Assembly (NCBI GenBank): GCA_027487215.1
Contig: JAIYDZ010000006.1
Span: 275,892-339,891, forward strand
Direction: 5' to 3'
Length of the DNA: 64,000 nt
From: Pseudomonadota bacterium
Lineage (GTDB): Bacteria > Babelota > Babeliae > Babelales > CAIQNR01
Positions within the stretch are counted from its first letter, which is position 1. Every line of letters begins with the position of its first letter. Position numbers and translations under genes: made by a program. This document shows, in pieces, positions 13,934 to 45,552 of the stretch. The notes beneath the pieces were generated by a model. It saw only the letters and a program-made list of their open reading frames with translations, did no database searches and had not been told where the DNA came from.

Positions 13934-14560
13934 ATGACTACAAAAAAATTTTTCGCCCTTATTTTTCTTACCACCCTTACTCAATCGGTCTTTGCAGGGC
14001 CTAATGAAAACCTTTTAAAAGCTATACAAGAGCAGGATTTTAAAAAAGCAGAACAAGCTCTCAATGAGGAAGCTGATGTCAACTATACCTATCAGAACGG
14101 ATACTCTCCTTTACTACAAGCTACAGAAAATAAAAATACTCCTATAGCATCATTACTCCTTAAAAGAGGAGCAACCGTAGACTTTCAAACTCGCTTGGGA
14201 AGTACTTCTTTAATGTTTGCCGCTTCAAATAATGATCTTAGAACAGCAACTTTGCTTATTAATTACAAGGCTAATGTTTTACTCAGACAAAGAGATACCA
14301 CCAATTTTAAAGGTAAAATAATCAAAGGCGAGACCGCTCTGGAAATTGCTAAAAGAAAAGCACACCTCTATATGGATACTAAGGGTGAAGCTATAGTAGA
14401 TCCAGAAAACTTTACAGACAATGAAATTTTGCAAAAATCACTTGAAATTGCAGAGCAAGAGCAACAGAAAAAAATCTCTGTAGCAACAGAAATAAAAGAT
14501 TCTAGGCATGATTCAGCAATTGATCTGTTTCAAGAAGGACAGGCTGCTCAGAATGAATAA
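13934..14560 (+). CDS. Secreted ankyrin-repeat protein
   Basis: GGAGGTTATTATG start context. Signal peptide MTTKKFFALIFLTTLTQSVFA. ANK blocks: SPLLQATENKNTPIASLLLKRGA and TSLMFAASNNDLRTATLLINYKAN. Confidence 0.8.
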   Translation: MTTKKFFALIFLTTLTQSVFAGPNENLLKAIQEQDFKKAEQALNEEADVNYTYQNGYSPLLQATENKNTPIASLLLKRGATVDFQTRLGSTSLMFAASNNDLRTATLLINYKANVLLRQRDTTNFKGKIIKGETALEIAKRKAHLYMDTKGEAIVDPENFTDNEILQKSLEIAEQEQQKKISVATEIKDSRHDSAIDLFQEGQAAQNE

Positions 14561-21766: not shown

Positions 21767-21861
21767 GACAAGATCCTTTAAAAGATATATAACGCATGTT
21801 GGTTAAAGGTTAAATTTTTGTTCTAAAAATGCCACTTAAACTTTTGAAACTTTTACCTCAT

Positions 21862-21890
21862 AAAAAAGCGGATCTTTCGATCCGCTTAAT
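21862..21890 (-). terminator. Rho-independent terminator of paralog 2
   Basis: Plus-strand text AAAAAAGCGGATCTTTCGATCCGCTT. On the minus strand the GC-rich hairpin is followed by T6. Confidence 0.7.
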
Positions 21891-21914
21891 TTTTAAAATC
21901 TATAGATATCTTAT

Positions 21915-22769
21915 TTAATCGAGAAGGCCATTGGAATGAGCATTATTGCGCAGCTGTTTGTAAAGGCAAGCAACCGCAATAAAAAAAATAAATAAAGCCA
22001 CGGGAACAAACACTAACAGTAGAAGTACATTCACTATCCACACGATGTTTAGCAAACCACTTAGTAAGTACAGGGGAACAACAGCAATACAAAAAACAAG
22101 ACATAATAGCATATACAATACTATTCCTGACAAAGCCCACCCCACTATTCTCCATAGATTACCGTGGGTAATTTTCCAGCTCGTTGAAAATGCGTCAAAA
22201 GAGTTTTCTGCTCTGTCTGCAAGTGCATATGAAACTAAACTAGATCGAAGTAAAAGGTACACAAACACTACACTCAGCCCCATGATTACTATAACAAGAG
22301 GACCTTTAAGGGAATTAAAAGCCTGACTAACAGGAGTAAGACTCTCACTGCTGGCCGACAAACTAACAAATGCCGCTTTTAAAAATGCCATAGATACAGA
22401 AACAGGAAGAATCCAAGCGTACATATATTGAAAGTGAAGCCCAGAATTATTAAATAAATTTTTCCAGCTCAATTTATGATGCACAACGAGCCGTGTAGCT
22501 AACTTGATTAAACCAAAATAAAAAAATAAAAAAGCTATTACACAAAGCACAAGAAAAAGAGCTACAAGTCCAGGAGACTGGACTAAAAAATCTCTAAGAA
22601 CAAAATCTTTGTCGTACTCAGAGTATTGAAATACACTAAACCCAAGCATACAGGTTAAAATCAAAGACGATACAATCAGAGCAGCGCCAAGCCGCCAGAG
22701 AGACCACCATTGTTTTTTTAAAATAACAAACAGATCTTTATAAGCTGCGCTTATAGATAATTTTTTCAT
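21915..22769 (-). CDS. Polytopic membrane protein, paralog 2 of 4
   Basis: N-terminus MKKLSISAAYKDLFVILKKQWWSLW, ALADRAENSFDAF...ITHGNLWRIV, C-terminal CLYKQLRNNAHSNG. Confidence 0.6.
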   Translation of the reverse strand: MKKLSISAAYKDLFVILKKQWWSLWRLGAALIVSSLILTCMLGFSVFQYSEYDKDFVLRDFLVQSPGLVALFLVLCVIAFLFFYFGLIKLATRLVVHHKLSWKNLFNNSGLHFQYMYAWILPVSVSMAFLKAAFVSLSASSESLTPVSQAFNSLKGPLVIVIMGLSVVFVYLLLRSSLVSYALADRAENSFDAFSTSWKITHGNLWRIVGWALSGIVLYMLLCLVFCIAVVPLYLLSGLLNIVWIVNVLLLLVFVPVALFIFFIAVACLYKQLRNNAHSNGLLD

Positions 22770-22915
22770 ATAAAAACCTTGTATCTAAAAAATTTCACAT
22801 CCCTGTAAGTATACCATAGTGCCCATGGATCGCACCTGGTAGTCTACTGGGCAAACAGCATACCTTAAATAAGCCAACTCATACCTTCTTTTGAAAAAAA
22901 GCCTCGTTTGACCAT

Positions 22916-22942
22916 AAAAAAAGCGGACCTTTCAATCCGCTT
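22916..22942 (-). terminator. Rho-independent terminator of paralog 3
   Basis: Plus-strand text AAAAAAAGCGGACCTTTCAATCCGCTT. Nearly identical to the 21862 hairpin. Confidence 0.7.
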
Positions 22943-22965
22943 AAAAACCCTTAAAATCTTATTAA

Positions 22966-23838
22966 TTAGACAATACGACCATCTTCTTTGGCATTATCAA
23001 GAAGCTGTTTATAGAGACATCCCATAGCAATTAAAAAAATGACTGTTGAAAAAGAATTCGAGATAATTCGCCATATAAGGCACCCAATTTCAGAAACTGA
23101 AGAAAGCTCAAATGCTATTGCACCACTAACACTCATTACAATAAGAGAAAGAAAATATAAAAGCATAAATGCAACAACTATACGCCAAAAATTTCCACGT
23201 GTTGCAATAAAACTCCTACGCACAGCAACAAGGGTATTATCAGCTCCCTCTACCAGAGCCCACGAATAAAAAATACTACGAATAATAAGAAAGCAAAGTG
23301 AAAACAAAAAAACTAAAAGAAACGTCTTTCCTACGGTTGGATATCCAGCCTGCGTAAACGTTACAATCACCTGAGAAACAAGCGATCCGATTACACTTAT
23401 ACTTATAACCCATCCACCTATTCCCACTAAAAACCACAAAGTTCCCTTAATAACTGCTCCAAAAAGATACGCTTGAAGAGGTCTTCTCTTAAGAATATCC
23501 CATACAACCGTGGTCAATACATACATAGATACCATGGAAATAATAGCATAGAGAAAACTCCATACTTCAAAAGAAACACCCCCCTCATCAAAAAAATGGG
23601 TGGTAGAAAACCAATCAACATTATAACCATGGCTTAAAGGGAAATAAGACAGAATAGTAAGAAAATCAAATCCTGCCTCTTGCACGGCAATAGGAGTAAC
23701 TTTTGTCACTAATAGATGGAGGGTGACTGCTATAATACCCGTATAAATCAGACACAATCCAAATACAGTTGGCCAATGTTTTTTAAATTCTTTCCAGGAG
23801 GTACGGATCCAGGAGCCAACATCTAATTTTTTAATCAT
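22966..23838 (-). CDS. Polytopic membrane protein, paralog 3 of 4
   Basis: ATG 23838 is preceded by AAGGAA. MIKKLDVGSWIRTSWKEFKKHWPTVFG, ALVEGADNTLVAV...ATRGNFWRIV, C-terminal CLYKQLLDNAKEDG. Confidence 0.6.
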   Translation of the reverse strand: MIKKLDVGSWIRTSWKEFKKHWPTVFGLCLIYTGIIAVTLHLLVTKVTPIAVQEAGFDFLTILSYFPLSHGYNVDWFSTTHFFDEGGVSFEVWSFLYAIISMVSMYVLTTVVWDILKRRPLQAYLFGAVIKGTLWFLVGIGGWVISISVIGSLVSQVIVTFTQAGYPTVGKTFLLVFLFSLCFLIIRSIFYSWALVEGADNTLVAVRRSFIATRGNFWRIVVAFMLLYFLSLIVMSVSGAIAFELSSVSEIGCLIWRIISNSFSTVIFLIAMGCLYKQLLDNAKEDGRIV

Positions 23839-23880
23839 CTGCAATTCCTTAATGTAAAAAGCATTTACATACATTACAGC

Positions 23881-23908
23881 AAAAAAGGCGGACCTACTGA
23901 TCCGCCTT
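23881..23908 (-). terminator. Rho-independent terminator of paralog 4
   Basis: Plus-strand text AAAAAAGGCGGACCTACTGATCCGCCTT. Same design as the two above. Confidence 0.7.
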
Positions 23909-23930
23909 AAAAGTTTTCTTAATCTAATAA

Positions 23931-24776
23931 TTAAACAAGTTGACCGTTTTCTTTTGCATTATCACGCAGCTGCTTATAAAGACAACCACTAGCAATTGTC
24001 ATTGTCGCACTAAAAAATGCATTAATGAAAATAACCCATACCAAACGAACAAGAGGAGAAATTAAAGTAAGTTTAAGAGCAACTACTCCTCCTACAAACA
24101 TTAAGGCAGATGCAAAACAGGCTACAACCAAGAGTGCTGCAAAAAATCTCCAAAAATTATTACGTGTAACTGCAAAACTGGTTATAACAGCAGCAAGAGC
24201 ATTAGGAGCCCCATCAGCAAGCGCCCACGAAAGAAAAAGAGATCTTAACATTATTATCATAAGGCACAGCATCGCAATTACTAACGCAACTATTCCAGAA
24301 AGTGGATACCCTGCCTGAGTAGAAAGTACTACAACCTGGGTAAAGGCCTTCATGACACCATAGGTGAGAGCTACAAAAGATCCAAATCCTAGCAAGAACC
24401 ACACTGATTCTTGTAAAAACTCAGGAACAAATTTTGCATGCACATGTCTTCTTAAAAGACTGTTCCATACAAATTTGGTAAGCGCATAAGAAATTATAAA
24501 TGAAAAAGCTAAATACCCAATGCCAAATATATCCCCCGTAAGGTTATATCCTTCCGTAAAAGAATAATGGGAAACTGTCGAAAGAAACTGATTATTTCCA
24601 AACAGTGCTTCTTTTGCACTCATTACTTCGGGAGTAGCTTTATTTACCAGAAGTACCAGCGCGGCATATAAAATACTTGTAACTACCAAAGAAACGCCAA
24701 AAATAGAGGACGCATGTTTTTGCCATTCACGACAAGAACTTTTAATCCAGGAGCCAAGAGATAGTTTTTTTTCCAT
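23931..24776 (-). CDS. Polytopic membrane protein, paralog 4 of 4
   Basis: ATG 24776. MEKKLSLGSWIKSSCREWQKHASSIFG, ALADGAPNALAAV...VTRNNFWRFF, C-terminal CLYKQLRDNAKENG. Confidence 0.6.
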   Translation of the reverse strand: MEKKLSLGSWIKSSCREWQKHASSIFGVSLVVTSILYAALVLLVNKATPEVMSAKEALFGNNQFLSTVSHYSFTEGYNLTGDIFGIGYLAFSFIISYALTKFVWNSLLRRHVHAKFVPEFLQESVWFLLGFGSFVALTYGVMKAFTQVVVLSTQAGYPLSGIVALVIAMLCLMIIMLRSLFLSWALADGAPNALAAVITSFAVTRNNFWRFFAALLVVACFASALMFVGGVVALKLTLISPLVRLVWVIFINAFFSATMTIASGCLYKQLRDNAKENGQLV

Positions 24777-24860
24777 GAAAAGCCCTTTCATATGAGACAA
24801 TCTTAATCAGGGAGTGTAACACTCTTTAAAGAAAGGACAACTTGCTAAAGCTCTACCAGC

Positions 24861-25233: not shown

Positions 25234-26157
25234 ATGAAAATAATTGTCCTCTCTCGTGACCTTTCACCCGCCGACCAACAACTGTTTACCGCTGCACGAG
25301 CACGGGGGCACCGTATTAGTTTTGTCAGAGCACTTGATTGCTCATTAATGGTTGCTACGGGAAAGCTTTCCATTGCTTACCGTGACAAACCTCTTCCAAA
25401 AGCAGATTGTGTTCTTTTACGCAATACTCTTTTCTTTTGCGCTGATGGGGCAATTGTCGCCTATCATCTTGAAGCAATGGGCATTCCCGTTATTAATCCT
25501 ATTGCATCGCTTCAGCGCGCTGGCAACAAACTCAAAACATTACAGCTCTTAGGCTCACACGGTATTCAGATCCCCACAACAGGATTTTCTCTGGGCCGCG
25601 AAGCACTTGAACAGGTGGTTGATAAGGTAGGAGGAGAGCAACAGATTATTAAAACGGTACATGGCAGCTGGGGGACAGGAACTCTTCTTGCCGGCGCTCC
25701 GCTTGGATCGCATAGTCTTGCAGAAACACTACAACTCAGTTCATGCAATCCTTTAATTCAACAATTTATTGAAGAAGCTTTTGGCAAAAGTATTCGCGTG
25801 TTTGTTATTGGCAATAAAGTCGTGGCAAGCGTTGAATATGAATCGACTGAAGGTGATTTTCGTTCTAACTTCTCACGCGGGGCAGAAGGACGAGTTGTTA
25901 AACTCACTAAACAAGAAGAGGCCATGGCACTTAAAGCAACGCACCTTCTTGGTCTTAATTATTCAGGGGTCGACATTGTGCGCTCATCTGAAGGACCTTA
26001 TATTCTTGAAGTTAACGCCTCTCCTGGAACGCTTGGCATAAGTGAAGTCTCTGGTATTGATGTAGCTGATTTACTCATTGAAGAATGTGAAAAAATAGTT
26101 GCTGACAAAGAAATGTTCGTTGTTCCTGCTCGCACACAAAAAACTTTCTCTCTCTAA
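25234..26157 (+). CDS. RimK-family ATP-grasp peptide ligase (paralog A)
   Basis: NKLKTLQLLGSHGIQIPTT, GDFRSNFSRGAEG and GVDIVRSSEGPYILEVNASPG are RimK-family ATP-grasp blocks. Confidence 0.75.
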   Translation: MKIIVLSRDLSPADQQLFTAARARGHRISFVRALDCSLMVATGKLSIAYRDKPLPKADCVLLRNTLFFCADGAIVAYHLEAMGIPVINPIASLQRAGNKLKTLQLLGSHGIQIPTTGFSLGREALEQVVDKVGGEQQIIKTVHGSWGTGTLLAGAPLGSHSLAETLQLSSCNPLIQQFIEEAFGKSIRVFVIGNKVVASVEYESTEGDFRSNFSRGAEGRVVKLTKQEEAMALKATHLLGLNYSGVDIVRSSEGPYILEVNASPGTLGISEVSGIDVADLLIEECEKIVADKEMFVVPARTQKTFSL

Positions 26158-26242
26158 AAACTGCACAGAATCATTGACCAATTATGAAATAGCATTACGC
26201 TACACCCTTGTTAATAAAGGTTCTCATAATAAAGGGTCGATA

Positions 26243-26905
26243 ATGAAAAAACTTTTTTTTCTTTTAGCACTTGCACCATTTTTTTTGGATGCAACGCCTG
26301 AAGATGCTGCAAAATTGGTAAGCGTACGCGCCATCAATCCAAACATCCGCGTTGAATGTTGGTATGCAACTCAGAACAATTTCACTGGACAACAAGTGTA
26401 TCCTACAGAGCTTTTTGGTGAATGTTTTGTACTTGAAAAAGTTGCAAAAAAACTTGATAAGATACAAAAAACTCTTCAAAAAGATGGTCGTGGTTTACTC
26501 ATTTGGGATGGTTTTAGATCTCAGCAAGCTCAAGAAACTCTCTGGAACATTTGCCCTGATGAACGTTATGTAAGCGATCCTTCAAAAGGTGGCAGACACA
26601 CACGCGGCACAACCGTAGACTTAACAATTATTGATCTTAAAACTAACACACCCCTTAATATGGGCACCGGTTTTGATGTATTTACACAGCGCGCATGGTC
26701 ACATGCTGAAAATCTGTCACCAGAAATTCAAGCAAACAGAGCTTTGCTACAAAATCTCATGAAAGAACATGGATTTACTGAAGTAGAAACTGAATGGTGG
26801 CATTTTGATTATAAAAATTATAATGAATACAAACCACTTGATGTAACCTATAAAGAAATCCTTGCAAAACTTCCTGTACAATCACAACCAGAAATTGGCG
26901 CATAA
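26243..26905 (+). CDS. Secreted D-alanyl-D-alanine dipeptidase (VanX/DdpX, peptidase M15D)
   Basis: ATG 26243 with signal peptide MKKLFFLLALAPFFLDA. GGRHTRGTTVDLTI (VanX SxHxxGxAxD zinc site) and EWWHFDY. Confidence 0.8.
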   Translation: MKKLFFLLALAPFFLDATPEDAAKLVSVRAINPNIRVECWYATQNNFTGQQVYPTELFGECFVLEKVAKKLDKIQKTLQKDGRGLLIWDGFRSQQAQETLWNICPDERYVSDPSKGGRHTRGTTVDLTIIDLKTNTPLNMGTGFDVFTQRAWSHAENLSPEIQANRALLQNLMKEHGFTEVETEWWHFDYKNYNEYKPLDVTYKEILAKLPVQSQPEIGA

Positions 26906-27632: not shown

Positions 27633-28529
27633 GTGAGAATTGTCCTTCTTGCAAGTAACCCGGAACTCTATTCAAATAAACGCATTATGGAAGCGGCTGA
27701 AAAACGTGGCCACCAAGTGCGGTTCATTAATATTGAACAATGCTTTATGAATATTTGTGCCAAAAATCCAGAGATTCATTATCACGATGGACAAACTATC
27801 TCTGAAGTTGATGTAGTCATTCCTCGAATTAAACCTGCAATGACACTCTACGGCAATGCAGTGTTACGTCAATTTGAACTCATGGGCGCTGTATGTCTTA
27901 ATACTCCCATTGCAATCAGCAAATCTCGCGACAAACTCCGCTCACTTCAGATTCTTGCTCAACACAAAATTGATATCCCTACTACCGCATTTGCACACTC
28001 TCCTCAAAACACAAAAAATATTATTTCACTCGTAGGTGGCGCTCCCCTTATTGTAAAACTTCTTGAAGGAACTCAGGGCATCGGTGTCGTGCTTGCAGAA
28101 ACTCAAAAAGCCAGTGAAAGCGTGATTCGCGCATTTAAAATGCTCAAAACTCACATTCTTGTTCAGCAGTTTATTAAAGAATCAGCAGGACAGGATTTAC
28201 GTTGTTTTGTCATTGGTGATAAAGTAGTGGGCGCAGTACAAAGAACCGCTTCTGATGGTGACTTTCGTTCAAATCTCCATTTAGGTGGAATTGCCGAGGT
28301 GGTCAAAGTTACGCCTCAAGAACGTAAGGTTGCAATACTTGCTGCAAAAGCAATGGGGCTTCATATTGCTGGAGTTGACGTCATTCGCTCAGATACAGGT
28401 CCAAAAGTGTTGGAAGTAAACTCTTCTCCGGGCATTCAAGGGATAGAAACAGCAACCAAGATTGATATTGCTGATAAGATGATTGAATACGCTGAAAAGC
28501 TTTTTGAAAAGAAACAGCAAAAAAGTTAA
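27633..28529 (+). CDS. rimK: Ribosomal protein S6--L-glutamate ligase family ATP-grasp enzyme (paralog B)
   Basis: GTG start. MRIVLLASNPELYSNKRIMEAAEKRGHQVRFI, DKLRSLQILAQHKIDIPTT, GDFRSNLHLGG and GVDVIRSDTGPKVLEVNSSPG. Confidence 0.8.
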   Translation: MRIVLLASNPELYSNKRIMEAAEKRGHQVRFINIEQCFMNICAKNPEIHYHDGQTISEVDVVIPRIKPAMTLYGNAVLRQFELMGAVCLNTPIAISKSRDKLRSLQILAQHKIDIPTTAFAHSPQNTKNIISLVGGAPLIVKLLEGTQGIGVVLAETQKASESVIRAFKMLKTHILVQQFIKESAGQDLRCFVIGDKVVGAVQRTASDGDFRSNLHLGGIAEVVKVTPQERKVAILAAKAMGLHIAGVDVIRSDTGPKVLEVNSSPGIQGIETATKIDIADKMIEYAEKLFEKKQQKS

Positions 28530-29794: not shown

Positions 29795-31950
29795 TTAATT
29801 TATTACACATCCCAAACATTTTTTCTTACCCGACACCCTTCTGCCATAGCGCCTACTTGTGTTTAATTGATTTTGACCAAAAGTTGATGTCAATTGTGCC
29901 TCTTGCTCTCTTTGTCCATCTTCTCTATCAATAACCACATCGTCAGTGCTTGGCACAAAATTACTCGATGGTTGCAGATCAATAGGGCTAAAAACTTCAG
30001 GTTGATACTCTTGCAAGGCATCATGAGGTTGAACACCCGCCATCAGCTGATCACTTGGTTGATCGCCTATCTCTTGAATATCCTCCAGTTTTAATTGTTT
30101 CCAATCCAAATAAAGGCCATCTTCATTTTTTGCTAGAGCAATAATATCGGAAAAAGAAACCTTCGTTAAATCCACTTGAAACTGGTTGAGTACAGACTGA
30201 CATGTCGCAAGTTGCCACATATTAACATGTCCTGACCTAGTACTTACCGTTGCAAATTTTAGACCATCTTTACTAACGCTTATCTTACTAAGCCCAGCAC
30301 ATGGCATCTTAGGATAACGAGAATTTTTGTCGTACCAATGAGGATCGGGAACCTTTTTTTCGTGCCAATTAGCATATTCAATCGCTCGCTTAAAATAACC
30401 TTCACAATCCATAAGAACATCTTTTAAAGAATCTAATTGTTCAGAGTCGCCAAGACAAGAGCTTACAGCTACCTTCAATGGTCCATTTCCTAGTTTAACA
30501 ATTTCAGGATCTGTTTTTTCCATAAGAAGCAAATCAGCTCCCTCATCATAAACGATAAACAAGTCACCTTCCGAACTAAAACCTGCACCTATAAACTTTT
30601 TAAAACAATCCTTTAAATGTTTATAGTGTGATGGTTCAGAAAAGCAGTTTATTTGTATATCGCCTTGAGTGGAAACAACTGCAATTCTGTCTCCATCTTC
30701 TTGAATCAATCCACATCGACGACTATACATAGCACGACAATCCCAATCTAGTCTTTTTATAGAATGAGGTTTATCTTTTTGATCATCAATTTTCCATGTA
30801 CTAACATCACCAAAAGCGTCAATTACAGCAAGCTCAGAACCGCCTTCTATTAATTCAGCCGCAATGATAAGACGATCCAAATGAAAACTTCTTAGATGCT
30901 CACCAGTTGCAGCATTATATAAAGCCACCGCAGAGCGGTCTTCATACGATAAACCATAGATCACAACAAGGAAGTCTTTTAAAGGAGTAAATTTTATTGA
31001 TCTGCAATAGCCTGAAAGAGGAATATATCTTCCTGTGCGATAATTCCAATAATTAAAATAAAATGTTGGTATGGTATAAAGAGGCTTAGCTGCTTCCTGA
31101 GCACTTTCATCCTTACCGCTTTTTTCTAATTTCTTAAAATCCCACACATGTATATTAAAATTAACTTTATAGACCGCAGCACTACGCTCAGACGGTTCAC
31201 TCTCTCGTTCTTCAGTCACTATTTTTGAGCCATCTGGACTAAAAATTAAACCTTTAATATCAAGATTATGAGGGATGGCCACTAGTCTCTCACCACAAGC
31301 AACATCAAAAACAGTAAGGGTTTTTTTATCCAAAACCATCGCTAATTTTGAAGAGTCAGGACTGAATTTAACTTCTTTACAAAAAGGGTCAGAATTAAAT
31401 GTAGTGCTACCACATGGAGCATAAACCCTTACTAGACAATCAGATGGGCTAAAAGAATGTATAGTTTTTAAAACACTCTTTCGTCCTTGCAACAAAAGTT
31501 TATCAACAATCATACTTTTTAAAGAAACCTTATCAGCCATTTTCTTCAATAAATCATGTGTGTCTGAACTTATGCCTTCTTTCATAAACTTTTGCGCAAG
31601 CGCTCCGACCAACATATCAGTATAAAAAAATCTAAATCTGCTGCGGCACATGTTATATGTCCAAGCGTTTTCTGGTCAAACTTTTTCATGTCTTCAATTG
31701 CTTTTTGAGAATGGTTATTCAAATTCATTAAATAACCAAAAACTAACGGTGTAAGAAATTGACTTTCAACCTTGATTATTGGGTTGTTCTCTGTGCGTAA
31801 AACTTTTTTAAGAACTAAGCTATTTTCTATAAATGATTGAAAGACAGGCACTCGAGAGCCATCTCTTAACTGCAAATCAAAACCAGAAAAAAGGCTGTTG
31901 CAAAAAAATAGAGTGCTCCCTAAAAAAATAATTTTTATCCTTGTGATCAC
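29795..31950 (-). pseudogene. Skp1/BTB-like + WD40/beta-propeller protein, reading frame broken at a T7 tract
   Basis: The N-terminal ORF 31582..31950 (GTG start, hydrophobic leader, LQLRDGSRVPVFQSFIENSLVLKKVL) and the 618-aa ORF 29795..31651 overlap by 70 nt. A -1 shift at GATTTTTTTAT (A7 on the plus strand, 31624-31630) fuses them to ...AAADLDFFYTDMLVGALAQKFMKEGIS. That junction aligns with IIADYFDNNNIKTVTKLLADKLLSEGIT of the intact paralog at 63388. Confidence 0.6.
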
Positions 31951-34645: not shown

Positions 34646-34779
34646 AAGTCCTTAAAACTTAAACTAAAACATGAGCTTAAGAGAAGTTTTTTGTCTCTCT
34701 TTGCTTAGGTGAAAGTTATCATTCCCCTCTAATTTGTGTAATCTTGAGGGGAATGATTGTTTTATATGAAGGATTTTTA

Positions 34780-36111
34780 ATGCTGAATGAGATGGGTAGT
34801 CACCTGTTTTCTTATCTTGAATTGGTTGATGAACTGATGTGGGGATATGTTGCTATTCCTGCTGTTTTTGTCTTTGGACTTTACTTCTCAACCAAGTCAC
34901 GCTGGATACAAATTTTCAAATTTGGCACCATTTTTAAAATTTTTAAAAACCTTTTCTCTAAAAAAAATTCTGGATCTCAACGCGGAATAAGGCCTCTTAA
35001 TGCATTTTTTGCTGCAATTGGCGGATGCATAGGAATTGGTAATATTGTTGGGGTATGTCTTGCTGTACAAATTGGTGGTCCTGGATCAGTTTTTTGGATG
35101 TGGATTGGCGGACTTCTGGGAATGATTGTTAAATACGCAGAGATCTATCTTGGTGTAAAATATAGAATTCATGAAGGCACCCATGGGTATAGTGGCGGCC
35201 CTATGTACTATTTACAAAAAGCAAGTCACTCACGAATTTTATCGGTTCTTTTTTGTATTTTAATGTGCATCTATGGGGTAGAAATTTATATCTTTAGAGT
35301 TATTACCCAAAGTGTTGTAGACGGATGGGGATGGAATCAAAATCTTACCGTGGTCCTTCTTTTAGCCGGTGTTCTTTTTGCTGGTAAAAAAGGTGTCGAC
35401 TCTGCTGGTAAAATTAGCAGCGCATTAGTTCCTCTCTTTTTAGTGATCTTTACCGGTGTATGTCTCTGGGTATTTGGACAAAACATTCCTCAATTTATTG
35501 CAGCACTTAAACTTATCGTGACCAGTGCTTTTACAGGCCACGCAGCTGTGGGAGCTTTTGCAGGAAGCACTGTGATGCTTACTATGGCAAATGGTATTAA
35601 ACGTGCCTGTTACACCGGAGACATTGGAATTGGATACGCTTCAATCATTCACTCTGAGTCAGCAGAAGCTGTACCTGAAAAAGAGGCTGCGCTGGGTATT
35701 TTTGGAATTTTTATTGATACTTTTGTTATTTGCACAATGAGTGTTCTTCTTATTATTGTTACCGGACTGTGGAATCAGGGGATCGATGAAAACTTTGTAG
35801 TTGCTCAAGCACTGGGTCAGTACGTTCCTGGAATTACAGTCATTTGGCCATTTTTTATCTTTCTTCTGGGTTATTCAACACTTATTGCATTCTTTGCCGC
35901 AGGAAAAAAATCAGCACAGTTTTTACTTCCTCGTTATGGCTCTATCATTTATAATGTGTATGCCGCTTTTGCATTCCTGATCTTTTCATTTGTAGGCACA
36001 CCTATTAGCATCATGACCATTATGTCTATGACAGGCGCGCTGCTCTTACTTCTTAATATGTATGGGATCTTTAAGCTTAAAGATGGTATATCTTTTGACC
36101 TGCATACATAA
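34780..36111 (+). CDS. Alanine/glycine:cation symporter (AGCS) family transporter
   Basis: GGPGSVFWMWIGGLLGMIVKYAEIYLGVKYR AGCS signature. ATG 34780 is preceded by GAAGGA. Confidence 0.8.
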   Translation: MLNEMGSHLFSYLELVDELMWGYVAIPAVFVFGLYFSTKSRWIQIFKFGTIFKIFKNLFSKKNSGSQRGIRPLNAFFAAIGGCIGIGNIVGVCLAVQIGGPGSVFWMWIGGLLGMIVKYAEIYLGVKYRIHEGTHGYSGGPMYYLQKASHSRILSVLFCILMCIYGVEIYIFRVITQSVVDGWGWNQNLTVVLLLAGVLFAGKKGVDSAGKISSALVPLFLVIFTGVCLWVFGQNIPQFIAALKLIVTSAFTGHAAVGAFAGSTVMLTMANGIKRACYTGDIGIGYASIIHSESAEAVPEKEAALGIFGIFIDTFVICTMSVLLIIVTGLWNQGIDENFVVAQALGQYVPGITVIWPFFIFLLGYSTLIAFFAAGKKSAQFLLPRYGSIIYNVYAAFAFLIFSFVGTPISIMTIMSMTGALLLLLNMYGIFKLKDGISFDLHT

Positions 36112-36213
36112 CTTAAAAGATATGATTTTTTGACCATTTTACAGACTCAACCCTAACCTGATATACTCAAAAACAGGGTATTTTAGGGGACTTCTCAATA
36201 ATGGAGTATTTAA

Positions 36214-37428
36214 ATGGTTAAAAAATCTCTTTTAGGGCTTTTATTAAGCTTATCTTTAGGTAATTCGGTCTACACGTGGAAATCTGAAGATCTCCTTGCT
36301 CCCGTTTATGATGCGGGTGCAAAAACAACTGAATGGATTACTGAGCATAAGTTGCTGGTAGCTTCATCTGCAATTGCTGCCTATACAACCTACCAAAGCT
36401 ATAATCTTTTTAGCCACGTCTCAAAACTGGTATTTATACCTACTGTTGATCAGGAAGATGTTGTATGGACGACAACACCAGAAAATGAAAAAATAACTAC
36501 CGTCTTTTATCAAGGCTTGAAAAACTCTTTGACCCAACTTACTAACTATACCGGTTCGCGTGGGTTTACTGCTCCAACAGGAGAACATATCGTCTCTGCA
36601 CTTGGAATTGATATTGCCTACAACCCTCTTACCAGCCATGAAATAAAAGAAGTAATTCTTAAAGGTGACTCTCGCCTACAAAAATACGCGCTACGCGATC
36701 ATTTCTTCCATTTACTTACCAGTGTAATAAATAACAGCAAACGCATAACCTACACCCAGCCTCAAACTTCTAACGGTATGACCATGAAGTCCCACTCCCT
36801 TGTTTTTGATCAGGTTTGTATTGGTCAAAACAATGATATGAATAATTTTGATGAAAAATTCAGTCAAGAACAACAACAAAAGCCTTCAATCCTTTTTGGG
36901 GTATCACGCGGATCTGCTACGGTGTTTAACTCTGTTGCCGATCGCAATTATGATCTAAGCAATGTAAAAATGATTATTCTTGAAGGATGTTTTGATAGCG
37001 TTATCAATATTATTGATAAACGATGGGGAAAGCTTTATCAACTAATGCCAACTTCAGTCTTTAAGTATTTAGCAAAAAAATCGGTCCCTGGTCTTAATGT
37101 TGATGGGCCTTTCCCGATCCAACATGCAGATAAATTTGCCCATAAAGCACAAAATATTCCAGTCGTTTTTATCACAAGTAAAATTGACAAAGTTGTGCCT
37201 CATGAATGTACCGTGGCGCTTGCAAATGCGGTAAAAAAAGCAGGGCATCAAAAAGTATACTTACTGAAACTTGAAAAGTCTGCTCATCCTTATTACCACA
37301 TTGATCACGCAGACGATCGTGCAAAATATCTGCACTTCATGCATGCGGTGTACAAAAAACATGGACTCCCTTATTCAGAAGCACAAGCAGCTCTTGGAGA
37401 GCACCTATTAGAGGAAGCTCTTTTATAA
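36214..37428 (+). CDS. Secreted/anchored alpha/beta-hydrolase-like protein
   Basis: Hydrophobic N-terminus. GVSRG (GxSxG nucleophile elbow) within ILFGVSRGSATVF. Later EGCFDS and KSAHPYYH could supply Asp/His. Fold assignment is tentative. Confidence 0.4.
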   Translation: MVKKSLLGLLLSLSLGNSVYTWKSEDLLAPVYDAGAKTTEWITEHKLLVASSAIAAYTTYQSYNLFSHVSKLVFIPTVDQEDVVWTTTPENEKITTVFYQGLKNSLTQLTNYTGSRGFTAPTGEHIVSALGIDIAYNPLTSHEIKEVILKGDSRLQKYALRDHFFHLLTSVINNSKRITYTQPQTSNGMTMKSHSLVFDQVCIGQNNDMNNFDEKFSQEQQQKPSILFGVSRGSATVFNSVADRNYDLSNVKMIILEGCFDSVINIIDKRWGKLYQLMPTSVFKYLAKKSVPGLNVDGPFPIQHADKFAHKAQNIPVVFITSKIDKVVPHECTVALANAVKKAGHQKVYLLKLEKSAHPYYHIDHADDRAKYLHFMHAVYKKHGLPYSEAQAALGEHLLEEALL

Positions 37429-37475
37429 AGATATCTTTCTCGTGTATAGTAAAATTATAAGAAAATCCGCAATTA

Positions 37476-37504
37476 TTGTATTAAATTGAGGATCTTCTTA
37501 TAAT
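37476..37504 (+). promoter_or_regulatory. Putative sigma70 promoter
   Basis: TTGTAT (37476-81), 17-nt spacer, TATAAT (37499-504), about 50 nt upstream of ATG 37556. Confidence 0.45.
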
Positions 37505-37555
37505 ATACCTCACAAATATTTTATTAAAAATAATCTTAACAAAGATAACTTTCTT

Positions 37556-38626
37556 ATGAAAAAAAATCTTTCACTTACGCTTCTAGGCGGACTTTTTTGC
37601 ACAACTTACATTTTAAGCATTTTCTCAATGGAGCACGACACTCATGGACGATATGGAGCCCACTCATTAACACCCTCAAGAAACGCTTCCCGAAGAAACC
37701 CACATTCAGAAAGACAAGATGAAAGAGACAACCCAAGAGAGCGCGAAAGACGATCACAAATTAATGAACCACGAGAAAGACGTCATCCTCGTCGCACTTT
37801 GGGATCTGGCAACCATCGACGCGATCAGGCAATTTCATCAAATACTTTCAGACCACGTTACGTTTTTACCAGAACTACTGTAGAAAAAGTCGATGCACCA
37901 ATGATAGATCAATCAGTTGTCCAAGAAGATAAATCAGTAGAAGTTACTTCAGAAAATTTTAGCCAAATACTTTATATAGCTGTCGTAAAAAATGACTATA
38001 AAAAAATTCAAACAGTTCTTTCTTCTTACCAGGGAGAAGAATTTGATCCAAACCAATTTGCTGAAAAAAATGAAACTCCTTTGCATAGAGCAGTCAGAGA
38101 TCAAAGATTAGAAATAGTTAAAGTACTGTGCGCTGACCCAAGAATTAAAATTAATACCCCTGACGATAAAGGTGAAACTGCTTTATTTAAAACAATAACA
38201 CCAGAGATAATAGAGCATCTTATTTTTAATGGAGCTGATCCTCGTCATAAAAATGAACGTGGATACAGTCCTCTTGATCAGGCACGAAAGCTATCACGTG
38301 AAGATGTCTTAATATCTCTTCAAGTAAAAATTATTAAAGAAAAAGCACAATTTATTAAACAGCAAGAGGAAGAACGTCTCCAAAGAATTCAGAGCAGTGC
38401 AGTAGAGGTTAAAAGTACTGAGGACACAGATAATCCTGTATGTTCAATCTGCTTTGAATCTGAAGTCGTCCTTGCAAGCGCTAAAGATACAACCGACATT
38501 ACCGGGTCTTTTGTTAACTCCTTTACTTGTACCCACCAGTATCATGAAAATTGTATTAAATCTCTTATTAAATTGGGATCAAAACGTTGCCCTCTTTGTC
38601 GAAGCTGTCTTAAAATATTGCTCTAA
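37556..38626 (+). CDS. Ankyrin-repeat protein with C-terminal RING-H2 finger (E3 ubiquitin-ligase-like)
   Basis: Hydrophobic N-terminus and an Arg/Glu-rich linker. ANK blocks: TPLHRAVRDQRLEIVKVLC and GETALFKTITPEIIEHLIFNGADP. C-terminus reads C-x2-C-x25-C-x-H-x2-H-x2-C-x11-C-x2-C (CSIC...CTHQYHENC...CPLC, nt 38441-38599). Confidence 0.75.
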   Translation: MKKNLSLTLLGGLFCTTYILSIFSMEHDTHGRYGAHSLTPSRNASRRNPHSERQDERDNPRERERRSQINEPRERRHPRRTLGSGNHRRDQAISSNTFRPRYVFTRTTVEKVDAPMIDQSVVQEDKSVEVTSENFSQILYIAVVKNDYKKIQTVLSSYQGEEFDPNQFAEKNETPLHRAVRDQRLEIVKVLCADPRIKINTPDDKGETALFKTITPEIIEHLIFNGADPRHKNERGYSPLDQARKLSREDVLISLQVKIIKEKAQFIKQQEEERLQRIQSSAVEVKSTEDTDNPVCSICFESEVVLASAKDTTDITGSFVNSFTCTHQYHENCIKSLIKLGSKRCPLCRSCLKILL

Positions 38627-38811
38627 GAGCCCCGGGAAAAATTGGTTATTCAGAAGTTTCTCTACGCGCACTTGTAGAATATTATCAGCAATAAGAACAT
38701 AAGCTAACAAGACCATAGAAATTTTGTTTTCGGTATCAACATACAAGAATCAGTCTCTGAAAGCCTTAGTGGCTAGTCAGAGTATTAGCCCTGGAGAGAT
38801 TATAATGAACT

Positions 38812-40710
38812 TTAAGAAGAAAGCTTACTCATTAAATCTTCCCATAAAGCTGTTTCTGCTTTAGATTGCGCCTCTTTTTGTGCAAGGTTCTTTTGTGCAG
38901 TGGCAAACTCAGGTGTGCCATATTCAAGATCCCCAAACACATTGCGCAGCTCAAAAAGCTCTGCTTCAAGTTTTTCTATTTTGCGTTCTGAACGCGCAAT
39001 AGATTTACGCAACTCAAAAGCATCAAGAGAACTGATTGAAGGTTGTTGTTCAGGCTCAGACTGAGAAGTTGCAGCCATTTTTCCATCTTCTTTTTTAGGT
39101 GTCGTTTTTTCACGCATTTTTTGCTGTTCTGCTTTTTGATGCAAGAACGATTCATAGTTACCGATGTAACTAAACACCCCGTCGGGAGTAAGTTCAAGAA
39201 TACGAGACGCAAGACGATTGACACATTCATGGTCGTGAGACACAAACAGCATGGTACCTTCAAATCGCTCAAGTGCGTCAAAGAGAATCTCTTTTGTTTG
39301 AATATCCAAATGGTTTGTCGGTTCGTCAAGGAGTAAGAAGTTAGCATCCTGTAAAAGAACCTTAACCATACTCACTCGGTTTCGCTCACCACCGCTTAAA
39401 ACGCCCGTTTTTTTAATAACTTCTTCTTTGGAAAATAAAAACGATCCTAAACAACTTCTAATTTGTTGTTCTGTTTTGTGCGCAGTACTATCAAAAACTT
39501 CCTGCAGCACTGTTTTGCGGGGATCAAGAACCTTATGTTGTTCCTGTTCAAACACCGTTGTTTTTACATTATGCCCCAGATGTAACGTTCCTGTTCGTGG
39601 TTTATATTTTCCACACAGTACGTTAAAAAGAGTTGTTTTACCCACACCATTGGGCGCAATAACTGCTACTTTTTCACCACGCTCAATCTGGAAGCTCACG
39701 TTTTTAAATATTGGCGTATCCCCAAACGAAAAGCCTAATTTTTCAACTTCAAGAACCATCCGCCCTGAACGTTCAGGAGTGCCAAATGAAAATCCTACTG
39801 AACGCACTTGGTTGGGAATTTCAATAACCTCAATTTTATCAAGCGCACGCTCCATACTTTTAGCCATTTTTGATTTACTTGCCTTGGCCTTAAATCGTTC
39901 AATGGTTTTTCTTTTTTGTTCAATCTCTTTTTGTTGCTGTTCATGAGCTGCATGAAGATGAGCCATCGCTTGAGCTTTTTGGTTCTCATAATCCTGGTAG
40001 TTACCGTGATACACAGTGCTTCTGCCCGCTTCAAGTTCTAAAATTTTAGTACACAGTTCATCTAAGAAATAACGATCGTGACATACGAGCATAAAACCAA
40101 ATTTTGCTTCTTTTAAAAAGCCTAAAAACCAATCTTTTGCCACAATGTCTAAATGGTTTGTTGGTTCGTCAAACAGATAAAAGTCGGCATTTTGTAAAAG
40201 AAGTTTTGCAAGCACAACACGCATCTGCCAGCCTACACTGAGTGAGGTCATTGATGCATTCATACGTTCTTGAGAAAAACCAAGTCCAGCAAGAATTTTT
40301 TTAGTTTTACTCATAGAAAGATCAGGATTTAACTCTTTTAAAGCGATGCTTACAAGAGCATATTCAGAAACAGCGTCTTGATCTCCTGAATTTACCGCTT
40401 CTTCTAATTTTTTAAGTTGCTCACTAAGTTGAGCAATTTCAGTGAAAGCATAAAACGCTTCCTCAACAACAGATCGCGAACTGTTAAGAACCACCTCTTG
40501 AGGCATATAAGCAAGTGTGCCTTTTCCAGCAATCGAAACAGATCCGCCATCAAGTGGCTGCTTTCCTGCGATTGCTTTAAGTAGAGTAGATTTCCCTGAA
40601 CCATTACGCCCAACAAGTCCAACTTTTTCACCTGCTGCAATCGTTGCTGACAGTGAATCAAATACTTTTTGCTTACCAAAATTCAAGGACAAACCATTGA
40701 GCTGTAACAC
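38812..40710 (-). CDS. ABC-F family ATPase (two ABC domains, C-terminal coiled coil)
   Basis: Two Walker A sites (GRNGSGKST, APNGVGKTT) and two signatures (LSVGWQ, LSGGER). No TM domain. 632 aa. Confidence 0.88.
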   Translation of the reverse strand: MLQLNGLSLNFGKQKVFDSLSATIAAGEKVGLVGRNGSGKSTLLKAIAGKQPLDGGSVSIAGKGTLAYMPQEVVLNSSRSVVEEAFYAFTEIAQLSEQLKKLEEAVNSGDQDAVSEYALVSIALKELNPDLSMSKTKKILAGLGFSQERMNASMTSLSVGWQMRVVLAKLLLQNADFYLFDEPTNHLDIVAKDWFLGFLKEAKFGFMLVCHDRYFLDELCTKILELEAGRSTVYHGNYQDYENQKAQAMAHLHAAHEQQQKEIEQKRKTIERFKAKASKSKMAKSMERALDKIEVIEIPNQVRSVGFSFGTPERSGRMVLEVEKLGFSFGDTPIFKNVSFQIERGEKVAVIAPNGVGKTTLFNVLCGKYKPRTGTLHLGHNVKTTVFEQEQHKVLDPRKTVLQEVFDSTAHKTEQQIRSCLGSFLFSKEEVIKKTGVLSGGERNRVSMVKVLLQDANFLLLDEPTNHLDIQTKEILFDALERFEGTMLFVSHDHECVNRLASRILELTPDGVFSYIGNYESFLHQKAEQQKMREKTTPKKEDGKMAATSQSEPEQQPSISSLDAFELRKSIARSERKIEKLEAELFELRNVFGDLEYGTPEFATAQKNLAQKEAQSKAETALWEDLMSKLSS

Positions 40711-43523: not shown

Positions 43524-44000
43524 ATGAAGCACTCTCTCACGCATTTTTTTGCGCTCTTTGTTATAGTTCTGTCTTTCTCTGAAACTTTTTGTAAACGTCC
43601 TAAAAAAATACGCAAACAAACTTCCACTCTAGACGCTCCTCTTATCTCAGTAGTATCACCTGATTCATTTGCAACCGTGGTGGGAGAATCAAAAATACCC
43701 GTGGTACTTACTATTTGTGCAACTGGCACCTGGTGTGCACTTTCTCATGCAATGGCTCCCGTTATTAAACAAGTGGCAACAGAAAAAAAAGATTCTGTTC
43801 AATTTGCAGAAATACATGTAGATAGTTTTGAAAGAGAAGAACCGGCTCTCGTCCTTCTTAAACAGCGTTATAACGTCGAAGTAGATTGCGTTCCGACAAG
43901 CTTTGTTATTGTAAACAATCAAGTTATTGGAAAGCTAGAAGAAGAAATGGATTTAGAGAAATTTAATGAAACGATTAATTCAATTTTGCAAAAGAAGTAA
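43524..44000 (+). CDS. Secreted thioredoxin-fold protein with a monothiol CxxS site
   Basis: Signal peptide MKHSLTHFFALFVIVLSFSETFC. ICATGTWCALSHAMAPVIKQV has WCALS in place of WCGPC. Confidence 0.6.
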   Translation: MKHSLTHFFALFVIVLSFSETFCKRPKKIRKQTSTLDAPLISVVSPDSFATVVGESKIPVVLTICATGTWCALSHAMAPVIKQVATEKKDSVQFAEIHVDSFEREEPALVLLKQRYNVEVDCVPTSFVIVNNQVIGKLEEEMDLEKFNETINSILQKK

Positions 44001-44012
44001 TATTTCTGTTGA

Positions 44013-44040
44013 TTGACAAAGGGTCTATATCGGTTATGAT
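44013..44040 (+). promoter_or_regulatory. Putative sigma70 promoter
   Basis: TTGACA (44013-18), 16-nt spacer, TATGAT (44035-40), 75-90 nt upstream of the next ORF. Confidence 0.4.
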
Positions 44041-44114
44041 GTGCACACTATCAGCTTTAAAAAAGGCATAGTTAGTAATAAGCAGTGTTTGAAACTGTAT
44101 AGATAATTCACTTT

Positions 44115-44603
44115 ATGTGGGGTACTGACGTGAACAAACAATTATTCTCTCTATTAACCGCTCTTTCTCTTTTTGTTGGCGCAACTGCCAAAGAGGTTCC
44201 TGCACAAGTAAGAACCTTAACCCTTATCAACAGTTCTGATGATGTTAAGACCGTCGAAATTAAATACGTAAGAAACGTATACGCTTCTTCTGACAATGAA
44301 ACACTTGCTGCCGCAGAAAGAGTTCTTCATAGAACACACAAACAGATTATAACTCTTCAAGCTGGTCAAGAAATCGATGTACTTCTTGACGCTACAAGCA
44401 TTTCATTAAAAGCAATAACCGTAACTGATTCTCATGGAAAAATAACCCGTAAGTTCAGCAATGATACTATTGAACTTCCTCTCACAATTACTTTCAATGA
44501 GAGAGATTTCAGTACAAGTCCTCTAGTCATTGTTTCAAGAGGCAAAGACAAAATTCACTGGACAACACGTGCAGCTCAAGCAGCAGTGAACGTACTTCAG
44601 TAA
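44115..44603 (+). CDS. Hypothetical secreted protein
   Basis: Signal-like LFSLLTALSLFVGATA. The start could be the GTG at 44130. No domain recognised. Confidence 0.45.
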   Translation: MWGTDVNKQLFSLLTALSLFVGATAKEVPAQVRTLTLINSSDDVKTVEIKYVRNVYASSDNETLAAAERVLHRTHKQIITLQAGQEIDVLLDATSISLKAITVTDSHGKITRKFSNDTIELPLTITFNERDFSTSPLVIVSRGKDKIHWTTRAAQAAVNVLQ

Positions 44604-44632
44604 ATTAGTTTTAAAAAGCTGATAGATTAAAA

Positions 44633-44660
44633 AGCTCGGTATTAAAGCCGGGCTTTTTTA
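44633..44660 (+). terminator. Rho-independent terminator
   Basis: AGCTCGG pairs with CCGGGCT (one G.U), followed by TTTTTT. Confidence 0.6.
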
Positions 44661-44760
44661 ATGCTCTTTAAGCTCACAGAGCCATTATCCGCTTGACACC
44701 CCCTTCCATTTAGACAATATTTAAACCTGAATTGAATAGGGTATTACGTATGGGGGATTT

Positions 44761-45552
44761 ATGAAATTAGGTAAAATGATAGTAACTTTATCTGTAGCTA
44801 CATTTTTTATAACTACTTTTCCAGTGAGCGACAATGTCGTTCAGTATGAGATTCATCCACAAAACACTCACTCTATAAGTGATGCTACCCAAACCGCTGA
44901 CACTCAAGCGCTACTGAATCAAATAAACCAAAGAAAAGCGGACCTTTCGGCTTACACAAATGAACTGCCTCCACTTTTTAAAGAAATTAACAATATTAAC
45001 TTTGTACATAACCCACACAACCTTATTACTTTTGAAATCATTGATTTTTGGTCATCCACAGTCAATAAAGTTATGAAGTTACTTCTTTCTAAAAGGATTA
45101 CTTGTATCTATGTTGGATGGGATGATTTTAAAACCCAAACAGGTAGAATTAATGATGATCACGTGATAATAAGTCCTGAAATTAAAATCATGAGAGAACT
45201 TCATTCACAGCTTTCAAGTCACATGGTTATTACTGCCCTACAAGTCAACTATAGAGGCACCCTCGCTGTAGGAGATCCTTTTTGTAAATGTGGAGCGTTA
45301 AAATTCAGAGATCTTTTTGGAATAGATTTTACTCCTGAAACAAACTATGGGCTAAAATATAAACATTGTTTTTTAATACTCACCGATGGAGTCATTACAG
45401 ACATTGTTCCAGAAAATGCTACCAAAGAAGAACTGTATAAAAGACTTTCCCTGGCCTATAATGCTGTTAATGAAATTCCGCTTGAACAAAAGTTAAAAAA
45501 AGATCTTCAGGCGGCTCAAAAAAACTATCAATGTATAAAGGACTTGAGATGA
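44761..45552 (+). CDS. Hypothetical membrane-anchored/secreted protein
   Basis: 263 aa with hydrophobic N-terminus MKLGKMIVTLSVATFFITTFPV. Its stop overlaps the next start (ATGA). Confidence 0.45.
   Translation: MKLGKMIVTLSVATFFITTFPVSDNVVQYEIHPQNTHSISDATQTADTQALLNQINQRKADLSAYTNELPPLFKEINNINFVHNPHNLITFEIIDFWSSTVNKVMKLLLSKRITCIYVGWDDFKTQTGRINDDHVIISPEIKIMRELHSQLSSHMVITALQVNYRGTLAVGDPFCKCGALKFRDLFGIDFTPETNYGLKYKHCFLILTDGVITDIVPENATKEELYKRLSLAYNAVNEIPLEQKLKKDLQAAQKNYQCIKDLR

Follow-up and report, generated by a model that had tools for sequence, protein, structure and literature searches.

Gene and domain architecture

The window analysed here is a 64-kb stretch of contig JAIYDZ010000006.1, part of a densely coded Gram-negative bacterial genome of ~38% GC, and the subject of this work is one of its genes, the product of which combines ankyrin (ANK) repeats with a C-terminal RING-H2 finger resembling those of eukaryotic E3 ubiquitin ligases. 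This ANK-RING gene is present in the mechanical list of open reading frames (ORFs), on the + strand and with a length of 356 amino acids (aa), at the limits reported by the first-pass annotation, an earlier reading of the same DNA; its product, hereafter the target, is laid out as a hydrophobic N-terminus, an Arg/Glu-rich low-complexity region, the ANK domain, a charged helix and a C3H2C3 finger, in this order (see Table 1).

Table 1. The ANK-RING gene, its parts, the slot in which it lies and the corresponding slots of related genomes
Feature	Position (nucleotides)	Strand	Content or basis
ANK-RING-H2 protein gene, complete, stop codon included	37556..38626	+	356 aa; mechanical ORF list
N-terminal segment, aa 1-24, MKKNLSLTLLGGLFCTTYILSIFS	37556..37627	+	basic n-region and ~20-residue hydrophobic segment; hydropathy scan
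Arg/Glu/Pro-rich low-complexity region, aa 25-125	37628..37930	+	20 Arg, 9 Glu, net charge +5
Ankyrin-repeat domain, aa 134-256	37955..38323	+	two canonical repeats with N- and C-terminal capping repeats
Charged helical linker from ANK to RING, aa 257-292 (VKIIKEKAQFIKQQEEERLQRIQ...)	38324..38431	+	equivalent linker in family members
RING-H2 finger, aa 296-349	38441..38602	+	Pfam, PDB sequence matches, model, fold search, family conservation, shuffle test
Short C-terminal tail, aa 350-356			
Variable slot between the Na/Ala symporter gene (34744-36111, +) and the ABC-F gene (38812-40710, -)	36112..38811	.	synteny and tblastn
404-aa protein, slot neighbour of the target	36214..37428	+	signal-like N-terminus (MVKKSLLGLLLSLSLG...), G-V-S-R-G serine-hydrolase elbow
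L001 slot			empty; Na/Ala symporter directly after ABC-F
L011 and L013 slots			unrelated genes
L012 slot			two tandem ANK-RING genes, 294 and 302 aa
L014/L015 slot (a Candidatus Babeliales metagenome-assembled genome)			two tandem ANK-RING genes, 301 and 279 aa
L020 slot			one ANK-RING gene, 358 aa, and an ANK gene

The integrity of the gene is supported by independent public runs, the contigs of which (44 kb and 38 kb) show no difference between positions 37300 and 38800 and contain no variants; since these independently assembled contigs are identical, an assembly artefact is ruled out. The target sequence was found in four runs belonging to three studies (freshwater and lake metagenomes). 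Both the GC content of the gene (0.371) and that of its third codon positions (GC3, 0.221) lie inside the range of the other window genes, a composition so unremarkable for the window that a recent horizontal import, considered as a possible origin of the gene, was rejected. Promoter and terminator scans returned background levels only.

The finger reads C296-S-I-C299-x25-C325-T-H327-Q-Y-H330-E-N-C333-x11-C345-P-L-C348, that is C-x2-C-x25-C-x-H-x2-H-x2-C-x11-C-x2-C, the codons from C296 to C348 occupying nucleotides 38441-38599; the eight ligands, their spacings and these positions are exactly those given by the first-pass annotation. A RING-H2 finger was defined by the ligand order C3H2C3 and by the pattern C-x2-C-x(9-39)-C-x(1-3)-H-x(2-3)-H-x2-C-x(4-48)-C-x2-C, and all the spacings observed (2, 25, 1, 2, 2, 11 and 2) fall within these limits. 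The pattern of the finger occurs once in the six frames of the window and never in the first nine comparison loci (~160 kb), the RING regular expression was matched in none of 200,000 shuffles of the protein, and seven of the nine Cys residues lie within the last 61 positions; taken together, the shuffle test, the clustering of Cys and the rarity of the pattern place the motif beyond chance.

Among the Pfam profiles, PF00097 (zf-C3HC4) matches aa 296-348 with 27.3 bits, over its curated cut-off of 21, and no non-RING zinc-finger family was found for the Cys/His cluster at E <= 1; assignment of the cluster to some other kind of zinc finger, the outcome that the first-pass annotation had set against its own claim, did not occur, RING families alone being returned. 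The nearest solved sequences in the PDB are likewise RING-H2 E3 ligases (RNF165/ARK2C, RLIM, Arkadia, RNF38 and RNF13; E 1.5e-3 to 0.03). Reading the residues around the ligands (numbered from the N-terminal one), Ile298 and Pro346 stand at positions that contact the ubiquitin-conjugating enzyme (E2), Arg349 stands at the linchpin position and Leu337 lies in the helix after C6. In characterised RING ligases, the aliphatic residue before C2, the Pro after C7 and the basic residue after C8 contact the E2 or prime the ubiquitin-charged E2 (E2~Ub). The loop between C2 and C3, of 25 residues, is longer by 12 than in the paralogues of L012 and L014.

A segment covering aa 281-356 was modelled with AlphaFold2 from an alignment of 41 RING-H2 segments drawn from an exhaustive phmmer search. 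The model has a predicted local distance difference test score (pLDDT) of 74.8 overall and of 82-91 over the C325-C348 core, and displays a beta-beta-alpha core (strands 39-41 and 48-50 and helix 51-59, in model numbering); its best 50 fold matches in the PDB are all RING E3 domains (probability ~1, template-modelling score 0.5-0.58) and include RING1B, APC11, RNF165, gp78, HRD1, Arkadia, RNF125 and Rbx1/2. Because the alignment was itself made of RING sequences, the model demonstrates compatibility with a RING and is not an independent proof of one; the independent evidence is found in the Pfam scores, in the PDB sequence matches and in the conservation of the ligands within the family described below. 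As judged from its sequence, the finger is confirmed as a RING-type domain.

Upstream of the finger, the Pfam family Ank_2 matches aa 139-233 with 56.3 bits (cut-off 27.3, E 5e-15), three more ANK models exceed their cut-offs (Ank_5, 38.6 bits against 27; Ank_3, 27.9 against 22.3; Ank, 27.1 against 21.1), and aa 164-256 are matched by designed and natural ANK proteins in the PDB with E values down to 1e-22. The earlier proposal of at least two ANK repeats is in keeping with these scores and with the two canonical and two flanking capping repeats that can be recognised, which puts the total at 3-4. The domain is presumed to be the substrate-binding module. A helix is predicted, with low confidence, at aa 248-280 in a single-sequence model, across the end of the ANK domain and part of the charged linker.

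The hydrophobic N-terminus, which had also been noticed before, is, to go by its hydropathy, a signal anchor or else a Sec signal peptide that may be cleaved after I-F-S; it contains the sole confident helix (aa 5-26) of the single-sequence full-length model, and a comparable segment is present in all family members and in both of the Cardinium ANK-RING proteins discussed below. The Arg/Glu-rich stretch (RRNPHSERQDERDNPRERERRSQ) is present as first described, and the low-complexity region to which it belongs is probably disordered, in view of its composition and of a pLDDT below 50. This region is not found in the other family members and appears as a ~90-residue insertion in the family alignment; in the rather doubtful broader scenario set out below, it might add a targeting function, for instance to the nucleus. 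A tandem repeat beneath the Arg/Glu stretch was considered and rejected, the DNA being devoid of tandem repeats there.

A locus-bound family in Dependentiae

The window encodes a Mur ligase, a penicillin-binding protein transpeptidase, BamA, MutL, cysteinyl-tRNA synthetase (CysRS), iPGM and an ABC-F ATPase. Named relatives of the CysRS (57-67% identity) all belong to Candidatus Babeliales, Babeliaceae or Dependentiae, save one evidently mislabelled metagenome-assembled genome (MAG), and this, together with synteny with Babeliales MAGs, assigns the window to a Dependentiae (Babeliales-like) bacterium. A Pseudomonadota origin was rejected, given that the CysRS relatives are Babeliales/Dependentiae and that one MAG locus under a Pseudomonadota label (L001) is syntenic with them. 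The nearest ABC-F loci come from MAGs, 50-55% identical, that are labelled either "uncultured Pseudomonadota" or "Candidatus Dependentiae".

Some labels in the public records deserve a remark in this connection. The MAGs of L001 and L003 are both named "uncultured Pseudomonadota bacterium"; their ABC-F proteins are 50-55% identical to that of the window, L001 shares the synteny of Bax1-I, ABC-F and symporter, and both MAGs are probably Dependentiae, their labels being likely wrong. A CysRS named 'Alteromonas naphthalenivorans' (P0091, 59% identity) stands among Babeliales sequences and is likely a taxonomic mislabel.

The loci of the relatives, taken as the contigs around the closest CysRS relatives, share a conserved block in which CysRS is followed by thioredoxins and then by Bax1-I and ABC-F, while the position after ABC-F is variable. 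In the window this slot holds a 404-aa hydrolase-like gene and the ANK-RING gene; counting the window, ANK-RING genes lie at the same slot in four related genomes (window, L012, L014/L015 and L020). The ANK-RING genes of the other three genomes repeat the architecture of the target: hydrophobic N-terminus, ANK repeats, charged helical linker and C-terminal C3H2C3 finger, apart from the altered first dyad of the L020 member noted below. Alignments of the target with slot proteins run colinearly through the ANK and RING parts (26-27% identity; E 3e-13 and 2e-8), whereas the flanking CysRS, ABC-F, Bax1-I and symporter are 55-70% identical to those of the relatives; as far as these identities can tell, the family diverges faster than its neighbours, which is typical of host-interaction genes.

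Without the synteny, the target would have passed for an orphan. A full-length search of an index of 5.8 billion proteins returned the target itself and ANK-only matches, a RING-only word search gave no match, an exhaustive phmmer search of 1.84 billion representative proteins found 34 weak, generic RING-H2 matches and no close relative, and a scan of the genome contigs with the target sequence found no relative either. The orphan status suggested by these searches was overturned by the slots of L012, L014/L015 and L020: the target is a member of a small, locus-bound and rapidly diverging ANK-RING family of Dependentiae, and not a one-off. Some such MAG proteins had already been named "RING finger domain-containing" by NCBI.

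The alignment of six members (~25% identity, 30% mean column identity) shows that the eight zinc ligands are its sole invariant columns. The residue before C2 is Ile, Leu or Val in all six, Pro follows C7 in four of the six, and Arg or Lys follows C8 in five; at the helix position where Trp is usual, A, C, I, W and V occur across the family and Leu in the target. The retention of the ligands and of the E2 surface while the rest of the protein drifts provides strong evolutionary evidence for what would be a working RING.

Other proteins of eukaryotic appearance are encoded in related contigs. The Babeliales MAG encodes a third RING-H2 protein, of 271 aa and devoid of ANK repeats (L014 12204-13019, -; L015 5354-6169, -); its N-terminus is signal-like, its RING (zf-RING_2, 34.7 bits) comes early in the sequence, and its C-terminal half is hydrophobic. 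This protein, to which nothing in the window is equivalent, may be a RING ligase anchored in the membrane. Variable positions of Babeliales contigs also carry a 158-aa protein with weak C2H2 zinc-finger matches (L013 2483-2959, -) and tandem leucine-rich repeat (LRR) proteins (L018 15623-16780, -), both eukaryote-like.

Comparable proteins and proposed function

The closest parallels to the target come from Cardinium, an intracellular bacterium. CAHE_p0026 (WP_014935004), encoded by plasmid pCher of Cardinium hertigii cEper1, is regarded in the literature as an ankyrin-repeat protein and putative RING ubiquitin ligase (PMC5698495), and WP_133281964 belongs to the Cardinium endosymbiont of Culicoides punctatus; like the target, both combine a hydrophobic N-terminus, ANK repeats and RING-H2, WP_133281964 having two RINGs. 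The ANK and zf-RING_2 (34.2 bits) domains of CAHE_p0026 were confirmed by Pfam. Colinear alignments from ANK to RING link the target to CAHE_p0026 (23% identity, E 1e-7) and to WP_133281964 (26% identity, E 3e-10); the latter is also among the 34 matches of the exhaustive RING search, and the profile of the Dependentiae family finds it with 98% probability (E 2e-14), the common signature being THQ(Y/F)H..C...G...CPLCR. The differences are that Cardinium belongs to the phylum Bacteroidota and lives in insect hosts, and that CAHE_p0026 is plasmid-borne, is longer (566 aa) and has many more repeats, which flank the RING on both sides. At such low identities, shared ancestry of the fused gene is not distinguishable from an independent fusion of two common domains.

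A precedent for activity is offered by SneRING (SNE_A12920) of Simkania negevensis, which is an active RING E3 with UbcH5b and UBE2T and forms K63 and K11 chains (PMC12591485). SneRING, which is of RING type like the target and comes from an obligate intracellular, amoeba-infecting bacterium, shows that such bacterial RINGs can be real ligases. Its ligands are atypical and it lacks ANK repeats, whereas in the target all eight ligands are canonical, Ile occupies the E2-contact position and the RING lies at the C-terminus. With the eukaryotic RING-H2 E3s (RNF165/ARK2C, Arkadia, RLIM, RNF38, RNF13 and Rbx1/APC11) the target shares C3H2C3, and its CP-x-CR includes the linchpin Arg; identity is only 20-38%, Leu replaces the conserved Trp, the C2-C3 loop of 25 residues is nearer to Rbx1/APC11 than to the Arkadia type (~14) and, unlike these E3s, the target is the product of a bacterial gene with an export-type N-terminus ahead of the finger. 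A further group comprises the NleG and LubX/GobX U-box effectors and the chlamydial NEX1b family, with RING/U-box and LRR (PMC2891834, PMC2996335, PMC4209131). These proteins come from host-associated bacteria and, by the logic proposed for the target, fuse an E2-recruiting RING/U-box to a repeat-type target-binding module; they differ in having a zinc-free U-box or an N-terminal RING/U-box, type III or IV delivery or an unknown route, and LRR or other binding domains, as opposed to the ligand-complete RING-H2, the ANK repeats and the Sec-type N-terminus of the target.

As to the organism, cultured Dependentiae (TM6) are obligate intracellular parasites of protists, namely amoebae and flagellates (PMC6561590, PMC4776705), a lifestyle presumed for the present bacterium too. 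Of the 98 ANK proteins of Chromulinavorax, 78% carry signal peptides (PMC6561590); a type II secretion system is encoded in TM6 genomes (PMC4776705). Published surveys of the phylum list ANK, WD40, F-box, LRR and tetratricopeptide repeat proteins, and in our limited check of the literature RING fingers were not mentioned in them (PMC4776705, PMC6561590).

On these grounds the gene product is, with moderate confidence, read as an exported, host-directed RING-type E3 ubiquitin ligase of an intracellular Dependentiae (Babeliales-like) bacterium. The sequences show the identity of the domains, the family, its synteny and the selective conservation of the zinc ligands; from there we infer export, zinc binding, E2 recruitment, catalysis and a host target in the following sequence: using the Sec route, the N-terminal hydrophobic segment would carry the protein through the inner membrane, from where it would be released onward to the host; two zinc ions would be taken up by the C3H2C3 finger in the reducing cytosol of the host, giving the cross-brace; Ile298, the C333 helix and Pro346 would then form the docking site of the finger for a ubiquitin-charged host E2, the linchpin Arg349 priming the E2~Ub thioester; and the ANK repeats, spaced off by the charged helix, would offer a host protein for ubiquitination. 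The idea of a self-contained E3 mimic, with ANK as the substrate part joined to a RING, had already been put forward by the first-pass annotation; as a hypothesis it is supported, since both domains hold and since it fits the organism and the evolutionary pattern. Its suggestion of host targeting fits a parasitic phylum as well, but the design is not unprecedented, the combination of ANK and RING having already been annotated in Cardinium (PMC5698495).

Several points weigh against the ligase reading. The full-length single-sequence AlphaFold model is unusable (pLDDT 39.9); in the model of aa 281-356 the 25-residue loop reaches a pLDDT of only ~62, and the RING-H2 sequences of the input alignment tilt that model towards the RING fold. 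Of the two Pfam profiles singled out for the finger beforehand, PF00097 is above its cut-off but PF13639, with 20.3 bits, is below its own (27.3), as is PF12678 (zf-rbx1; 29.9 bits, cut-off 31). Leu takes the place of the usual RING-H2 Trp at C6+4, and the first dyad of the L020 member is C-x3-C, so that some members of the family may be degenerating. The hydrophobic N-terminal segment, 20 residues long, could be a membrane anchor and not a cleaved signal. Finally, we know of no established route from the periplasm of Dependentiae to the host cytosol.

A broader scenario, which goes beyond the single protein and is regarded as rather doubtful, is that Dependentiae, for which no type III, IV or VI secretion system is known, deliver canonical zinc RING-H2 ligases to protists via Sec, followed by type II secretion or vesicles, and that this fast-evolving, locus-bound family has a common origin with the ANK-RING proteins of Cardinium, genes having passed between phyla inside eukaryotic hosts.

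Among the other explanations, one accepts a genuine RING that reaches the host and disputes its being a usual ubiquitin ligase: the protein could act as a decoy or inhibitor of E2, or serve SUMO, NEDD8 or an ISG15-like modifier. The evidence indeed covers only fold and ligand conservation, the helix position of the usual Trp is variable in the family and Leu in the target, and the insertion that makes the C2-C3 loop 25 residues long could change the E2 surface. Nevertheless, the family keeps Ile/Leu/Val at the E2-contact position, the Pro after C7 and the basic linchpin, which varied decoys would not need, and no SP-RING or MIZ family is significant (zf-Nse reaches only E 0.012), so that an alternative of this kind appears unlikely.

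The hydrophobic segment, being of membrane-spanning length, can also be read as the signal anchor of an envelope protein, in which ANK repeats and a zinc-stabilised Cys/His protein-binding module would work in the periplasm or at the surface, unrelated to ubiquitin; that no type III or type IV secretion signal or apparatus was seen in the window agrees with such a role. The oxidising periplasm is, however, a poor setting for a cross-brace built of six Cys and two His, the finger matches eukaryote-type E3 RINGs only, the evolution of the family is much faster than that of its neighbours, and the secreted effectors of the phylum are suspected to be ANK proteins that bear signal peptides (PMC6561590); an envelope role is accordingly held to be improbable.

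It is very improbable, in turn, that the target is the E3 of an endogenous prokaryotic ubiquitin-like conjugation system or of an anti-phage defence system. Prokaryotic ubiquitin-like operons with RING-like components do exist, and PADLOC gave one match to the target (PDC-M72A, E 4e-8); this match spans aa 118-279 and is restricted to the ankyrin region, for which reason a role in defence was rejected. The neighbours (ABC-F ATPase, Bax1-I homologue, Na/Ala symporter, thioredoxins and orphans) include no JAB protein, no genes for an endogenous ubiquitin-activating enzyme (E1), E2 or ubiquitin-like modifier lie near the ANK-RING gene in the window, and an exported topology clashes with cytoplasmic conjugation. 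Eukaryotic contamination, in the form of a RING gene of a protist attached in error to a bacterial contig, might be suspected from the typically eukaryotic domains and the metagenome assembly, and has a negligible probability for a single uninterrupted ORF of window-like composition that lies amid bacterial housekeeping genes on long, independently assembled and identical contigs and has homologues at the same slot in related bacterial genomes.

Putative E3-like ANK-RING effectors of intracellular bacteria are already known from Cardinium; what is new here is a syntenic Dependentiae family in which the RING ligands alone are invariant. If the ligase reading holds, Dependentiae would be the third independent lineage of intracellular bacteria, after Chlamydiae (Simkania) and Bacteroidota (Cardinium), with ligases of true RING type and not of the U-box or NEL type, an extension of a known theme that reveals no new mechanism. 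For widespread, mostly uncultured parasites of protists, the host manipulation of which is essentially unknown, the ANK-RING protein gives a concrete and testable effector hypothesis, strengthened by the recurrence of the gene at a fixed hot spot and by the conservation of the zinc ligands only; its small size also makes the protein convenient for assays.

Neighbouring genes

The 404-aa protein that shares the slot with the target has weak matches only, to Pfam Hydrolase_4 (21.6 bits against a cut-off of 27) and to esterases of the PDB (E~0.4), and tblastn found no counterpart at any related locus; its signal-like N-terminus and its serine-hydrolase elbow make it a candidate for another exported effector, for instance a lipase or esterase, and it cannot be shown to belong to the E3.

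A strict test for signal-like N-termini was passed by 13 of the 49 long ORFs of the window, and several more, other ANK proteins included, came near. The window encodes three more ANK proteins (12057-13694, +; 13934-14560, +; 51074-53056, -), the N-termini of which are near-identical and signal-peptide-like (MNKKQLLAFLFLTNLTQQIFA, MTTKKFFALIFLTTLTQSVFA and MKKQLFALVLLTTVFQSVF), which suggests a paralogous exported family; in the 660-aa one of the three, a long C-terminal part matches no Pfam family. Eukaryote-like WD40 beta-propeller proteins are encoded at 60346-62346 (+), with a strong WD40 match (150 bits), and at 29795-31651 (-), with weak propeller matches.

Four tandem genes at 20963-24800 (-) encode proteins of 267-302 aa with six to eight predicted membrane spans each; the two that were scanned match no Pfam family, and the set looks like a tandemly duplicated membrane-protein family. 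Two paralogous RimK-type ATP-grasp ligases with an unannotated ORF between them (25234-26157, 26099-26905 and 27633-28529, +) are unusual in a reduced genome. Paralogues of the Na+/alanine symporter are found at 1977-3350 (-) and next to the variable slot, consistent with a dependence on imported amino acids. No tRNA gene and no Rfam family at the gathering threshold was found in the whole window. Small signal-like proteins are encoded at 43524-46010 (+) and include two of thioredoxin fold (43524-44000 and 45531-46010); the thioredoxin cluster beside CysRS is kept in relatives L011-L014 and L020.

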